From Methanobacteriota archaeon (lineage in GTDB: Archaea > Thermoplasmatota > Thermoplasmata > SG8-5 > JAGLSY01), in assembly GCA_020696385.1 (NCBI GenBank), contig JAEHCQ010000004.1, forward strand, positions 96,001 to 160,000: a DNA stretch of 64,000 nt, written 5' to 3'. How positions within the stretch are numbered: position 1 is the stretch's first letter; every line of letters begins with the position of its first letter. The position numbers and the translations under genes were made by a program. The notes below the pieces were generated by a model. That model made no database searches and was not told the DNA's origin. It worked only from the letters and a program-made list of their open reading frames with translations. This document shows positions 1,771 through 57,458 of the stretch, piece after piece.

Positions 1771-2832
1771 ATGTCTGGTTTTGAAAAGAGTAAGAGAATG
1801 GAATTGCCCCGAGAGGTCGTAGTAGGTCACGATGCCTTAAATGAGGCTCCCGAGGTCTGCAAACATCTTGGTCTTCAAAACTCCGGTATCCTGGTATGTG
1901 ATGAGACTACCAGATCCATTGCGGGAGATAAGGTCAAAGAACTCCTGGAGGATGCTGGTTTTGATATTGATGTGGTCACGATCAAAGCCGCAGATGGTGA
2001 CACTGTGAACACTGTAAGTTCTTTGGCAACAGAAGGAAAGGCTGGCTTCGCTCTTGGAGTTGGTGGCGGCCAGCCAATAGATATTGCCAAATCCGCCTCT
2101 TTCAATATCAAAATACCATTTCTAAGTATTCCGACAGCGGCTTCTCATGATGGTATCGTATCATCCCGAGCCTCGATAACAATGGGCGGCGTTAAGAAGT
2201 CACTTGACGCACATACTCCATTGGGGGTCATCGCTGATACCGGGATCATATCACAATCCCCGCATAGGCTCTTAGCGGCCGGTTGTGGGGACATTATATC
2301 CAATCTCACCGCAGTTAAAGATTGGAAATTGGCTCAGAGGCTGAGAAATGAGGAATACAGTAGCTATGCGGCCACGCTTTCCGAGATGGTTGCCAAGATC
2401 CTAATTGAGAATGCGTCACATATACGACCTGGCCTGGAGGAATCATCCTGGACCGTGGTCAAAGGTCTTGTGTCCTCAGGGGTTTCGATGAGCATTGCTG
2501 GCTCCTCAAGGCCAGCAAGCGGCTCCGAGCACAAATTCTCCCATGCCCTTGACATGATATGTGAAAAACCCGCCCTGCATGGTGAGCAATGCGGGCTGGG
2601 AACGATAATGATGATGTATCTTCACGGCGGTGATTGGGAGAAGATCAAGGAAGCTCTTTGGATAATCGGAGCTCCCACAACCGCCAAGGCCGCTGGCTTA
2701 TCAAATGATGATGTGATAAACGCACTGGTCAAAGCCCATGAGATAAAGCCCGATAGGTACACGATACTGGGCTACAAGGGAATGACCATAGACGCCGCAG
2801 AGAAATTGGCCAAGACCACGATGGTGATATGA
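1771..2832 (+). CDS. egsA: sn-glycerol-1-phosphate dehydrogenase
   Basis: GVGGG..IDIAK, PTAASHDGIVS, SSRPASGSEHKFSHALD, LHGEQCG. Confidence 0.97.
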   Translation: MSGFEKSKRMELPREVVVGHDALNEAPEVCKHLGLQNSGILVCDETTRSIAGDKVKELLEDAGFDIDVVTIKAADGDTVNTVSSLATEGKAGFALGVGGGQPIDIAKSASFNIKIPFLSIPTAASHDGIVSSRASITMGGVKKSLDAHTPLGVIADTGIISQSPHRLLAAGCGDIISNLTAVKDWKLAQRLRNEEYSSYAATLSEMVAKILIENASHIRPGLEESSWTVVKGLVSSGVSMSIAGSSRPASGSEHKFSHALDMICEKPALHGEQCGLGTIMMMYLHGGDWEKIKEALWIIGAPTTAKAAGLSNDDVINALVKAHEIKPDRYTILGYKGMTIDAAEKLAKTTMVI

Positions 2833-3257
2833 TGAGTATGTTGACAGTAGTTGGCGTAAGCCTGGCAAAGAAAGGCACGGAGATCATTTTTCTAGGCCCC
2901 CTATCTGAATGTAAGGTGTGTAAGGTCAAGAATATATGTTTTCATCTTGACAAGGGCAGTCATTACAAGATCGTCGGGGTAAGAGATGTCAAGCATGGAT
3001 GTGAAGTTCATGAAGATGGAGTCAAGGTCGTCGAGATCGAGAAGATACCTTTCAAGGCGGTCATGGACAAGAAGAAGGCCATTGATGGCTCTACCATGGC
3101 CTTTGAGTTACCAAGCTGCATAGAGAGAGGATGCGAGCATTATCTGCTGTGCTATCCACCGGGACTGGCTTCCAAGAATAAGGTTAAGATCCTATCACTG
3201 GATGGCAAGGTGGAGTGCCCTGCAGGCATGGCAAGAGTTAAGGTCACTCTTGAGTGA
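2829..3257 (+). CDS. UPF0179 family protein
   Basis: LTVVG..LAKKG, CxxCxxxxxC and HxCxxH patterns; typical position after egsA. Confidence 0.85.
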   Translation: MMSMLTVVGVSLAKKGTEIIFLGPLSECKVCKVKNICFHLDKGSHYKIVGVRDVKHGCEVHEDGVKVVEIEKIPFKAVMDKKKAIDGSTMAFELPSCIERGCEHYLLCYPPGLASKNKVKILSLDGKVECPAGMARVKVTLE

Positions 3258-3361
3258 CCTATATGATTTCGAGTAGGTGAGGGCGATTTTTCTTTTGGAT
3301 TGGAAACCTTGTTCTTTTGGAGCCCGAGCCAGCACAGAAATCAATAAAAGAAAAGGCTTCC
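3258..3361 (+). mobile_element. Small structured non-coding insert (copy 1) between duplicated UPF0179 3' ends
   Basis: Flanked by 75-bp direct repeats 3183-3257 and 3362-3436 (4 mismatches); homologous to 50203-50380. Confidence 0.7.
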
Positions 3362-3436
3362 GTTAAGACCCTATCACTGGATGGCAAGGTGGAGTGCCCT
3401 GCAGGTATGGCAAGAGTGAAGGTCACTCTTGAGTAA
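3362..3436 (+). repeat. Displaced second copy of the UPF0179 3' end
   Basis: Encodes VKTLSLDGKVECPAGMARVKVTLE* versus VKILSLDGKVECPAGMARVKVTLE* in the gene. Confidence 0.95.
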
Positions 3437-5578: not shown

Positions 5579-5662
5579 GCGGGGATAGCTCAGCCTGGTA
5601 GGGCGCAGGATTGCTAATCCTGTGTTGGTAACAACTCGGGGGTTCGAATCCCCCTCCCCGCG
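5579..5662 (+). tRNA. tRNA-Ser(GCT)
   Basis: GCGGGGA/TCCCCGC acceptor stem, CAGGA-TT-GCT-AA-TCCTG anticodon arm, long variable arm, TTCGAAT loop. Confidence 0.95.
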
Positions 5663-5686: not shown

Positions 5687-5772
5687 GCTGAGGTAGCTAA
5701 GCCCGGTTTAAGGCGCTGGCCTTGAGAGCCAGTGGGAGCAATCCCTCAGGAGTTCGAATCCCCTCCTCAGCG
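5687..5772 (+). tRNA. tRNA-Ser(TGA)
   Basis: GCTGAGG/CCTCAGC acceptor, CTGGC-CT-TGA-GA-GCCAG arm, long variable arm; one A.C mismatch in the T stem. Confidence 0.92.
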
Positions 5773-40052: not shown

Positions 40053-40130
40053 TGGTAGCGGGGAGTCGATTTGAACGACTGATCTTCGGGTTATGAGCCC
40101 GACGGGATTTCCTGGCTACCCCACCCCGCT
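40053..40130 (-). tRNA. Initiator tRNA-Met(CAT)
   Basis: A1-U72 pair, GGG/CCC in the anticodon stem, CAT anticodon, encoded CCA. Confidence 0.96.
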
Positions 40131-49101: not shown

Positions 49102-50202
49102 ATGTCAGAAGTTTTCTTTGCCAAAGTGGGCGCCAGTAAGCACAATGAAAGATTACCAAATAAGGTTCGCCAGTTATTTGACAAAGCTGGTTTTAACAAT
49201 TTAATTTCGGAGAAGGACATGGTCGCCCTCAAGCTTCATTTTGGAGAGCCTGGCAATACCACATTTCTCAGGCCACAATTTACCCGTCAGATCGTGGACA
49301 AGGTGAAGGAAAGCGGTGGTAAGCCTTTCCTTACAGATGCAAACACACTATACACTGGCCAGAGATCCAATGCGGTGGATCATCTCAATGCCGCCGCCCT
49401 GCACGGATTCCTGCCAGCGGTTGTCGATGCTCCCATCATCATCGCGGATGGACTGACTGGCCGCGATTTCGTCGAGGTGGATGTGGATCTCAAGCACCTT
49501 AAATCAGTTAAGTTCGGAGCAGCTGCCTATCACGCTGACGTGATAGGAGCGATTTCTCATTTCAAATGCCACGTTGTCGGTGGTATCGGGGGCGCGATAA
49601 AGAACCTGGGTATGGGTTTCGGAAGTCGTGCTGGCAAGCAGCAGATGCATTCGGATACCAAGCCAGTTGTCGATGGCGAGAAGTGCATATCATGCGGTAC
49701 TTGTGCGAAATGGTGTCCGGAGGACGCGATCGATATTCCGGATAAAGCGATCATCAATCAGGACAAGTGCATCGGATGTGGTGAATGCCTTATACAGTGC
49801 CCGACCAAGGCCATCAATGTAAGATGGGATGCCAGCAGCAAGAATATGCAGGAGAAAATGGTCGAGTACACTTACGGAGTGATGAAGAATAAAAAGGACA
49901 AGACATTCTTCTACAATTTCTTACTGGATATCACGCCGGATTGCGACTGCGTGCCCTGGAGTGGGAAGCAGATAGTGCCAGATATCGGAATTATGGCATC
50001 CACAGACCCGATAGCTATCGATCAGGCATCGGCCGATTTTGTTAACCAGCAAACAGCCAATCCTGGATCCAAGATAGAGATTGCGGTAAATCCGGGTGAT
50101 GACAAGATCCACGAAGTTCATAATATCGATTGGGACCTACAGCTCAAATATGGAGAAGAAATAGGTCTGGGTAGTCGAAAATACAAGATAATCGAGATTT
50201 GA
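49102..50202 (+). CDS. DUF362 domain protein with 2x[4Fe-4S] ferredoxin insert
   Basis: KLHFGE.GN, ISHFK.H, GGAIKNLGMG, two CxxCxxCxxxCP motifs, PDCDC, DPIAID. Confidence 0.92.
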   Translation: MSEVFFAKVGASKHNERLPNKVRQLFDKAGFNNLISEKDMVALKLHFGEPGNTTFLRPQFTRQIVDKVKESGGKPFLTDANTLYTGQRSNAVDHLNAAALHGFLPAVVDAPIIIADGLTGRDFVEVDVDLKHLKSVKFGAAAYHADVIGAISHFKCHVVGGIGGAIKNLGMGFGSRAGKQQMHSDTKPVVDGEKCISCGTCAKWCPEDAIDIPDKAIINQDKCIGCGECLIQCPTKAINVRWDASSKNMQEKMVEYTYGVMKNKKDKTFFYNFLLDITPDCDCVPWSGKQIVPDIGIMASTDPIAIDQASADFVNQQTANPGSKIEIAVNPGDDKIHEVHNIDWDLQLKYGEEIGLGSRKYKIIEI

Positions 50203-50380
50203 TGCCAGGGCAATCGGCATTACCGAGCGAGCAGGCTTTGGCGAGTTTCTTTTTAGATGTGCGCTTCACGAAGCGCATGCATCTATTTTATCAAGCACAT
50301 GAACTGGGCTTGATTCGATTTGTCCGTCTTTTTTCTTTGTGAGCCAAAGCCAGCACAGCGAGGTTAAAAGAAAAAAGTGG
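50203..50380 (+). mobile_element. Small structured non-coding insert (copy 2) between duplicated DUF362 3' ends
   Basis: Flanked by 53-bp direct repeats 50150-50202 and 50381-50433 (4 mismatches); homologous to 3258-3361. Confidence 0.7.
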
Positions 50381-50433
50381 ATGGGGAGGAAATAGGTCTG
50401 GGTAGTCGAAAATACAAGATAATCGAGGTATGA
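50381..50433 (+). repeat. Displaced second copy of the DUF362 3' end
   Basis: Encodes GEEIGLGSRKYKIIEV* versus GEEIGLGSRKYKIIEI* in the gene. Confidence 0.95.
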
Positions 50434-50453: not shown

Positions 50454-51152
50454 TCATTCTTCATCCAGCTTTGCCAGCACCTTCTGAAGTCGCTCAGGAT
50501 TATCCGTGATTATACCATCAACTCCCATCAATGTCAGTTTCTTCATCTTGATGGGGCAATTGACCGTCCAAACGAAAATCTGCATCTTGTTTTCGCCAGC
50601 TTCCTTTATCAATTCCGGGCTCACCAGCTTGAACTCTGGAAAAATAGTACTGGCTCCCACTGTCTTGGCAACGGAAGTGATGACGATCTTATTGTCATCA
50701 CTTGAATACCCCGTTCTGGCATTTTTCTTATCCTTCAACTGGGCGATCGCAATACCCTCCTTTGAAGTGAATATGACGCTATCCAGCATATTGTTCTTCT
50801 TGACAAGTTTGTAGGCCGGCATCATCGCGCTCCTGGTCTTGATGTCAAGTACGAGACCGCATTTTCCCTTGGCCTCTTCCAGAGCCTCGGCCAGTGTGGG
50901 AATCTTCTCTTTCCTCTTCACCTTCAACTTGCCCAGTTTGGAGGATTCTGTCTGGCTGAGAAATCCAGATCCATTGGTCATGCGATTGAGCTTCTCGTCG
51001 TGGAATATGACGAGAACATCATCCTTCGATATCCTCACATCCAGCTCGACATAATCTGCTCCGAACTCCAGTGCTTTGTTAATTCCCGCAGTGGTGTTCT
51101 CAGGAGCGAGGCTTCTTGCGCCCCTGTGTCCGATTATGGCTGGTCTTTTCAT
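50454..51152 (-). CDS. Glycerophosphodiester phosphodiesterase
   Basis: IGHRGA...PENT, VELDV..SKD, HD..L.R, WTVN, GIITDNP. Confidence 0.94.
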   Translation of the reverse strand: MKRPAIIGHRGARSLAPENTTAGINKALEFGADYVELDVRISKDDVLVIFHDEKLNRMTNGSGFLSQTESSKLGKLKVKRKEKIPTLAEALEEAKGKCGLVLDIKTRSAMMPAYKLVKKNNMLDSVIFTSKEGIAIAQLKDKKNARTGYSSDDNKIVITSVAKTVGASTIFPEFKLVSPELIKEAGENKMQIFVWTVNCPIKMKKLTLMGVDGIITDNPERLQKVLAKLDEE

Positions 51153-51294
51153 TGAGAGAGATAATATCAGCATTGGATAAAAACAATGTGGGACGATGCA
51201 TGGACAATGCCACCTTCCGCCCCCGCCCTCGAATGCTCATTGAATCCACCCACCCTATAAAGGATAATATTATGGATTTTATTATTTATAAGCT

Positions 51295-57386: not shown

Positions 57387-57458
57387 GCCGCTGTGGCTAA
57401 GGGGTATAGCGATTCATTGGTAATGAATAGGTCGTGGGTTCAATTCCCATCAGCGGCT
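57387..57458 (+). tRNA. tRNA-Thr(GGT)
   Basis: GCCGCTG/CAGCGGC acceptor, ATTCA-TT-GGT-AA-TGAAT arm, GGTTCAATTCC. Confidence 0.95.

Follow-up and report, generated by a model that had tools for sequence, protein, structure and literature searches.

Small structured elements between duplicated gene ends in Thermoplasmata genomes, with a possible ENE-like RNA scaffold

A stretch of 64,000 nucleotides from a Methanobacteriota archaeon of the class Thermoplasmata (the window; assembly GCA_020696385.1, contig JAEHCQ010000004.1, positions 96,001 to 160,000 of the forward strand) contains, behind a gene for a DUF362 protein, a small insert that is flanked by two copies of the end of that gene. The insert belongs to a family of non-coding, strongly structured elements of 95-160 nt in Thermoplasmata, and other members of the family lie between duplicated ends of other genes. 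A structured element that is spread by recombination and carries an ENE-like RNA scaffold is the best explanation overall that we can offer for these findings, and we give it not quite an even chance of being right.

If it is right, ENE-type triple helices, which are known from eukaryotic nuclei, viruses and transposons, exist in archaea also, and the finding has a bearing on the means by which archaeal mRNAs lacking stabilising tails withstand decay from the 3' end. Insertion accompanied by long target duplication, a process without an accepted mechanism since 2000, would then have a case where each genome holds dozens of events and where mosaics of donor alleles point to homologous insertion-duplication, a testable proposal. 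Orphan fragments of gene ends and tRNA ends in these genomes would be explained, and a covariance model would serve for their masking. If the reading fails, an undescribed but ordinary family of small repeats is left.

An insert between two copies of a gene end

The protein encoded by the host gene matched DUF362 (E 4.6e-52) and Fer4 families in Pfam, and its orthologues in three congeners share the same ending pattern, Ile-stop. A sequence-only reading of the window had described a 53-bp gene end duplicated around a 178-bp insert, and a direct repeat of this kind was indeed found: 49 of 53 nt are identical (92%) at a spacing of 231, both copies terminate in TGA, and the four differences are those of GGA>GGG, GAA>GAG and ATT>GTA. 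The insert that separates the upstream copy (X) from the downstream copy (X') covers 178 nt (50203-50380). Only spurious open reading frames of 44-49 aa overlap it, and no mobility gene was found in it. Comparison with sister genomes, which the same reading had proposed, gave an element-free site in the three genomes G001, G002 and G003, each of which has a single copy of the gene end at the place of X'. As judged from the sequences, the DUF362 locus carries a genuine insertion, placed directly behind the stop codon of a gene that is intact.

Another copy, given by that reading as lying at 3258, stands behind a different gene and has a duplication of its own, since the end of the UPF0179 gene is repeated there around a shorter insert. 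The repeat (3183-3255 and 3362-3434; 73 nt, 96%) runs on to the stop codons at 3257 and 3436. Its two copies differ in three codons, two of them synonymous, and in TGA>TAA, and the site is without the element in G001, G002 and G003. That the two inserts are related was confirmed with a model built from 23 other copies, among them the one at 3264-3364, from which the DUF362-locus copy had been left out; it finds the latter at 50222-50379 with E 1.4e-12. The likeness supposed between the two inserts is well above chance, but it is not confined to them: both belong to a single family with about 40 loci in the genome.

Size and distribution of the family

The genome searched (G000) comprises 2.28 Mb in 50 contigs and is 94% complete. 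A profile built from seven copies gave 56 matches in 40 loci, and the covariance model, built from 23 short copies with the DUF362-locus copy excluded, gave 37-39 matches. By the covariance model, the family is present in 21 of 22 genomes of the order (four families, eight genera) and, across the class, in 21 of 71 sampled genomes and 8 of 24 sampled families. Nearly all genomes compared are metagenome bins; a few are single-contig. G002, a genome of the same genus (93% complete), has 20 copies at other places and one orthologous copy in common with G000.

Rfam gave no family for the element, either at gathering score or at E up to 10, and only tRNAs for the window. A collection of viral contigs, scanned for a pattern of the 3' arm and A-tract, contained no match, and literature searches gave no account of such an element in archaea. 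In a further genome (G021), a weak match to archaeal C/D box small RNA families (L088:2786-2842; 26 bits, gathering score 41) was seen 1.2 kb from a family member.

Insertion footprint

Direct repeats of 17-211 nt flanking the element were detected by BLAST at 26 of the 40 loci; at C3_2428, C48_76500 and C33_72806 the duplicate was seen solely at the protein level. Perfect duplications (100%) include such of 64, 60, 47 and 32 nt. The targets are 3' ends of protein genes and also of tRNA genes, and the segments flanking the element differ from locus to locus, which agrees with the proposal of the sequence-only reading that the insertion site follows position, at a gene 3' end, with no shared target motif. 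At all eight loci tested, the orthologous site of G002 has one copy of the repeat and no element. The 5' end of the element lies 0-12 nt past a stop codon in 9 of 17 loci (upstream open reading frames of at least 80 codons; search confined to the strand of the element). Filler on the 5' side varies from 0 to 70 nt, and at C2_13613 and C33_175441 the element's first 12-15 nt are part of the duplication. In the copies aligned, the repeat begins exactly where the 3' end of the element stops.

The same footprint was seen in other genomes too, among them single-contig ones of another family of the class, which have repeats of 32, 40 and 35 nt. At three loci of these single-contig genomes, L169 and L170 (G048) and L172 (G075), the repeats of 35-40 nt correspond to the ribosome-binding site, start codon and first ~15 codons of a gene on the opposite strand (…EPKILAFACNWC), and therefore gene starts can be duplicated too. 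At L171 (G075:C1:3018600-3019700) a member is situated inside the orthologue of a gene that is end-duplicated in G048 (L167); there is a long downstream copy and no upstream copy, and because the latter is missing the gene may be broken.

Three further loci show how members are arranged. In one spacer between convergent genes, G000 (L119, G000:C33:252400-253500) and G001:C459 (L151) each have a member, in opposite orientations; each member duplicates the end of the co-oriented gene, and G002 has no element there. Between L123 (G000:C11:77700-78500) and G002:C15 (L109), identity is ~99% over about 600 nt that take in the element, compared with 81-91% at other loci; the exceptions are 55 nt deleted from within the G000 element and six differences within 18 nt of the downstream gene-end copy. 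This region has the appearance of a segment that was recently exchanged and bears a recombination patch. Finally, L124 (G000:C50:1000-2700), outside the window, holds a gene for a 143-aa IS200/IS605-type Y1 transposase. Behind it come, in this order, a tRNA-like gene, a member of the family, the last 19 codons of the transposase gene in a diverged copy, a repeat of 104 nt (97%) and another tRNA-like gene. The two tRNA-like genes measure 87-88 nt and were both called tRNA-Phe(GAA) by ARAGORN, and the duplication seems to span several hundred nt.

Scaffold, covariation and apical module

From 5' to 3', the element is composed of an outer helix, a 14-nt stem arm, GA, a first T-rich tract (T1), a variable apex, a second T-rich tract (T2), GA, the matching arm and outer-helix strand, a linker, an A-tract and a fixed 3' end (Table 1). 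Across the family, the purine tract is of the type A4-G-A4. The 5' arm of the long stem (stem A) of the DUF362-locus copy pairs with 50343-50354 (inverted repeat, 12 nt, 92%), and a variable hexamer of this stem changes between copies through compensating pairs. Among 23 copies of G000, 91.9% of the stem A cells are paired, compared with 76.2% after shuffling and 24-35% with the partner slid, and both sides have changed in 7 of 12 pairs. For the extended structure in 28 distinct copies from 20 other genomes, the corresponding values are 93.9%, 79.3% and 40-50%, with change on both sides in 13 of 23 pairs. The alignment of these other-genome copies (A2) was fitted to the 12 pairs of stem A, with the outer helix and the T2/A-tract helix outside the model. 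Positions that are not of the Watson-Crick type are also kept: the conserved GA flanking the U-rich strands, forming G.A and A.G at the top of the stem, occurs in 27 and 24 of 29 other-genome copies, tandem G.A in 24-25 of 29 and A.A in 29 of 29. The scaffold is kept by compensating changes, and covariation supports its long stem, which closes two U-rich strands around a variable apex.

Table 1. Features of the DUF362 locus and of the second locus in the window.
Feature	Position	Strand	Remarks
Host gene, DUF362 domain and 4Fe-4S ferredoxin domains	49102..50202	+	366 aa, intact; stop TGA 50200-50202
X, upstream gene-end copy	50150..50202	+	last 17 codons and stop, in frame; belongs to the working gene
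Filler, stop codon to element	50203..50222	+	20 nt; unconserved among copies, matchless elsewhere in the genome
Element, long form	50223..50380	+	158 nt; covariance model R1 61.6 bits, E 1.4e-12; nhmmer matches to both halves
Closing helix, 5' strand	50223..50244	+	P0 50223-50228, stem A 5' arm 50229-50242, conserved GA 50243-50244
T1, first U-rich strand	50246..50254	+	parallel complement of A-tract; predicted Hoogsteen strand
Extra hairpin 1, apical module	50254..50285	+	core 50258-50279: 9-pair stem, then T-run
Extra hairpin 2, apical module	50290..50314	+	inverted repeat; also in predicted fold
T2, second U-rich strand	50327..50339	+	reverse complement of A-tract; predicted Watson-Crick strand
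Closing helix, 3' strand	50341..50363	+	GA 50341-50342, stem A 3' arm 50343-50356, bulged A, P0 50358-50363
A-rich tract and 3' end of element	50366..50380	+	A-rich tract 50366-50377; 3' end abuts downstream gene-end copy
X', displaced downstream gene-end copy	50381..50433	+	own stop; direct repeat with X
Convergent GDPD gene	50454-51173	-	its stop 20 nt beyond X'
Second locus, X, end of UPF0179 gene	3183..3257	+	gene 2829-3257
Second locus, element, short form	3264..3361	+	T1 3287-3296, apex 3297-3308, T2 3309-3318, A-tract 3346-3356; profile match E 1.2e-25
Second locus, X', displaced UPF0179 gene-end copy	3362..3436	+	

Both extra hairpins that had been read from the DUF362-locus copy are present (50254-50285 and 50290-50314). 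A search of the genome for the double-hairpin pattern gave 16 copies. Fifteen of these lie within or adjoin a family member on the same strand, and the 16th is inside a member that was detected by the covariance model alone. The stems differ between copies by compensating changes. The module has its place at the apex, flanked by the U-rich strands; short copies have a stretch of 11-12 nt at this point. The apical helix consists of real hairpins in the long forms and of only 2-3 pairs in the short ones. The idea of a conserved scaffold with a variable inside has held up, but that of cargo or the remains of a deleted open reading frame has not: the pair of hairpins is a recurrent module, apparently an exchangeable one. 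Outside the window, at G000:C33:151429-151694, four 17-nt matches to the start of hairpin 1 stand 81-87 nt apart, which suggests a tandem array related to the module.

A possible triple helix at the end of the transcript

T2 is the reverse complement of the purine tract, and T1 is its mirror. In the DUF362-locus copy, T1 (50246-50254) is a perfect parallel complement of the tract at 50367-50377, and T2 (50328-50338) is its perfect reverse complement (11 nt, 100%). The fit of the strands was tested with 43 distinct combinations parsed from 49 of 52 copies. Against the A-tract, T2 fitted better antiparallel in 38 of the 43 (opposite in none, equal in five), and T1 fitted better parallel in 25 (opposite in three, equal in 15). 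Both T1 and T2 matched the A-tract of their own copy more closely than those of other copies (0 of 2000 permutations for each strand).

According to excerpts from the literature, an ENE is a U-rich internal loop closed by helices which, together with a downstream A-rich tract, forms a U.A-U / C+.G-C triple helix that shields the 3' end of an RNA (PMC8457004). The parts of a 2026 review that were available list ENE-type elements for viruses, long non-coding RNAs, and plant and fungal transposons, and among prokaryotic triple helices name those of riboswitches and group II introns (PMC13541005). In the present element, the conserved U-rich strands T1 and T2 and the A-tract are arranged like those of an ENE with its A-rich tract; the triple-helical fold itself is a prediction. 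As far as the excerpts describe RNAs of this kind (MALAT1, MEN-beta, PAN, and RNAs of plant and fungal transposons; PMC8457004, PMC13541005), the following features are common to both: (i) a U-rich internal loop that is closed by helices on both sides; (ii) a pyrimidine interruption matched by a G of the tract, as in C+.G-C; (iii) a position at the 3' end of a transcription unit; (iv) use by mobile elements. The present element differs by its archaeal host, by a fold that is solely predicted, by U-tracts that could be archaeal terminators, and by the lack of a visible RNase P-type 3' processing signal in the element. In RNA read in the direction of the gene, the two U-rich strands, held by the closing helix, would enclose the 3' A-rich tract to form a U.A-U / C+.G-C triple helix in the manner of an ENE, and the triple helix would block 3'-to-5' decay at the end of the host-gene transcript. 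The strongest form of this model, in which the element is an archaeal counterpart of the ENE/MALAT1 type, namely a protein-free mobile cassette that would cap the transcript of any gene in front of it, spread within lineages as well as between them, and home by itself through gene-end homology with no enzyme of its own, is rather doubtful to us.

Alternatively, the element might act as DNA, or as a plain terminator or REP-like hairpin, and not as a triple-helix RNA; the T-tracts would then stop convergent transcription, and the mirror symmetry would serve the recognition of single-stranded DNA or the formation of H-DNA. T-rich tracts are indeed present on both strands (on the plus strand T1 and T2, on the minus strand the A-tract's complement), hairpin 1 with its T-run scores terminator-like, elements are placed in short spacers between convergent genes, and the same strands would pair as single-stranded DNA. 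Independent terminators, however, need not covary, whereas T1, T2 and the A-tract change together and in register across subfamilies, and the G.U pairs and conserved tandem G.A on the gene strand are typical of RNA. We regard a role as DNA or terminator as somewhat unlikely.

Divergence of the repeat copies

At 16 loci compared in frame, X and X' show 83.5 synonymous differences in 267 sites and 50.5 non-synonymous differences in 975 sites, i.e., a ratio of non-synonymous to synonymous differences per site (pN/pS) of 0.166. With the same alignments read in frames +1 and +2, the ratio is 1.81 and 1.60, respectively. In a freely drifting downstream copy non-synonymous changes would dominate, unlike what was observed; by their differences, the two copies look like two working genes. 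The differences are patchy, with identical blocks flanked by recoded heads or tails that have the same number of codons to the stop. An example of a recoded tail is GPRIL-stop, which is encoded twice with seven nucleotide differences.

Where relatives were informative, the upstream copy agrees mostly with the nearest relative, and head and body of the downstream copy agree with more distant lineages. At C46_100223 the upstream copy sides with the nearest relative at 9 versus 2 sites left of position 139, while the downstream copy does so at 3 versus 0 sites in its tail and has in its middle a CGT>AGG recoding in common with G003. The downstream tail at C33_252804 sides with G002 (4 versus 0 sites). 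At C3_2428 the upstream copy sides with G002 (12 versus 4), and the downstream tail retains two extra codons of the relatives. In the last codons of these three loci the relation is thus turned round, and a single crossover fits these three of the four informative tails. Mainly synonymous differences together with alleles of other lineages suggest that each copy travels with a gene-end segment which serves as its recombination address.

An artefact of assembly, in which the differences between repeat copies would stem from the merging of co-occurring strains in a metagenome bin, might be considered, given that nearly all genomes are bins and that the four differences at the DUF362 locus are few enough for strain variants. 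This is hardly credible, as patches differ at up to 7 of 15-18 nt and are too diverged for merged strain bubbles, the pattern recurs in bins of different studies and in single-contig genomes, and the duplication itself needs junction reads, which strain mixing cannot create. Mutagenic copying of the type of diversity-generating retroelements was weighed from the sequence and dropped, the differences between repeats not being A-specific.

Proposed spread, known systems and alternative explanations

In the spread that we propose, the travelling form of the element would include a copy of a gene end and would be either a circle or a fragment holding both repeats. The gene-end segment would recombine with the resident gene by host homologous recombination, in a Campbell-type insertion-duplication that leaves the gene intact. 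The upstream copy would then be mostly resident sequence with a donor tail, and the downstream copy mostly donor sequence with a resident tail. Recombination between the two copies could delete the element and restore the empty site, and such a cycle would need no enzyme encoded by the element. Exchange of the homologous rather than the site-specific type is favoured because dozens of unrelated segments are used, and restoration of empty sites by reverse exchange between the repeats fits the fast turnover. What the sequence-only reading called targeting is probably not recognition by an enzyme.

Several observations weigh against a recombining element with an ENE-like scaffold. No circle or excision product was seen. 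The model leaves unexplained the position of the 5' end 0-12 nt past the stop codon (9 of 17 loci) and the always exact 3' junction, and it does not explain how a new gene end is first joined to an element. The allele pattern is reversed at C11_577127; at the DUF362 locus, one of the four differences points each way and two point neither way. Bins that mix strains could misplace alleles between the two repeat copies. With regard to the scaffold, single-sequence folding gave no gain over shuffles for a short copy (z 0.32 and -0.56 on the two strands) and a modest one for the DUF362-locus copy (z -2.19), and the case for structure therefore rests on covariation and not on energy. The covariation and permutation figures, in turn, overstate independence because the copies are related. 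Lastly, oligo-T tracts such as T1 are archaeal termination signals and may stop the polymerase before the A-tract is reached.

The footprint closely resembles insertion with long target duplication as outlined in excerpts of Furuta et al. 2010 (PMC2853133). There, as here, direct repeats are variable and well over 30 bp, the insert has no mobility gene, the empty site of a related genome aligns with one repeat copy, and the repeats often span a stop or start codon while the target gene remains intact. A cycle of invasion, repeat use and release is proposed in that text, without experimental proof, for inserts that are kilobase-sized restriction-modification genes in single events (PMC2853133). 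The present inserts are, in contrast, structured elements of 95-160 nt that occur dozens of times per genome and class-wide, with mosaics of donor alleles.

Some integrative elements, e.g. e14 and phage 21 in icd, insert at the 3' end of a tRNA or protein gene, for which they bring a substitute end. Like them, the family uses the ends of tRNA and protein genes, and it may regenerate the gene and displace the native end downstream, which is the classic footprint of such elements; tail alleles are swapped at three of four informative loci, with the opposite pattern at C11_577127. Unlike them, it has neither an integrase nor any other gene, and a single family of elements is combined with dozens of 'att' sequences. 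The loci might nevertheless be attL/attR remnants of larger integrase-borne elements that brought a substitute gene end and lost their interior. Four tyrosine-recombinase matches exist in G000, all away from the DUF362 locus. We consider this origin highly improbable in view of about 40 loci with as many different duplicated sequences around one small insert, none of which, among those examined, has an integrase between the repeats; besides, an enzyme with site specificity would not act on unrelated cores by the dozen. A supposed composite element of 33 kb (C44:183536-216533) was rejected, as it proved to be two separate complete copies (183536; 216472) with internal insertions and no flanking repeat.

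As far as is known, REP/BIME, ERIC and MITE-type repeats make no target duplication or one that is short and fixed, a point in which the family, with its variable 17-211 nt, differs from them. It is similar to them in being small, multi-copy, hairpin-forming and extragenic, in lying behind genes, in having modular short and long forms, and in the presence of a single-copy Y1 transposase in the genomes. No autonomous element with the same ends and a transposase was seen, although no systematic search for long elements was made. Of the 22 genomes of the order, 16 have a Y1_Tnp gene, mostly in single copy, and these include all seven of high quality. An arrangement like that of REP with RAYT was discarded, since the element adjoins the Y1 gene at one of six loci examined and duplications flank it at 26 of 40.

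The wide occurrence of Y1_Tnp makes it conceivable that the element is a non-autonomous transposon which is moved in trans, e.g. by a Y1 (HUH) transposase, through two variably spaced nicks; repair would duplicate 17-211 nt, and the mosaics would arise later from patchy foreign recombination at a fragile, hairpin-rich site. Variable and often perfect duplications and the exact 3' junction are in line with this. So are the two duplications with 12-15 nt of the element's beginning in them, a feature that does not follow from a simple circle model, and the fresh patch of six differences in 18 nt in the downstream copy within the ~99% identical region common to G000 and G002. Random nicks would, however, leave the bias towards stop codons and tRNA ends unexplained, the element is rarely found beside the Y1 gene, and the edges of the mosaics fall inside the short repeats at most diverged loci, which is not expected of imports unrelated to insertion. 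To our knowledge, Y1 transposases produce no target duplication, and we know of no prokaryotic transposase that duplicates so long and so variable a segment. The 19-26 bp of IS1630 figure as the long extreme in the excerpts of PMC2853133. Transposition in trans is distinctly unlikely on this evidence.

A SINE-like route, in which the element would be co-transcribed with its host gene, copied into cDNA from its 3' end to a variable depth in the gene, and recombined with an empty allele, would account for the exact 3' junction and for the variable 5' filler (0-70 nt). It is also compatible with the co-orientation of element and duplicated gene at 16 loci (examined on the element's strand only), with one copy that has a tRNA-like gene between repeat and element, as in 5' transduction, and with the RNA-like scaffold with its conserved tandem G.A and A.A mismatches. 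Reverse transcriptase is not a general property of the carriers, though: RVT_1 is absent from G000 and present in 2 of 22 genomes of the order, as opposed to the element in 21 of 22, and copies from a different family of the class have duplicated starts of genes on the opposite strand. The route is very improbable for these reasons. An apparent 5' truncation at C11_78050, taken as a sign of reverse transcription, turned out to reflect the secondary loss of 55 nt from within the element, of which G002 still has the full copy. A bulge-helix-bulge intron, an integron attC site and translation of the downstream copy were weighed from sequence alone and dropped.

Other features of the window

Two adjacent long tRNA genes of 84 and 86 nt are located on the plus strand at 5579-5662 and 5687-5772. 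Further tRNAs lie at 40056-40130 (minus strand) and 57387-57458 (plus strand).

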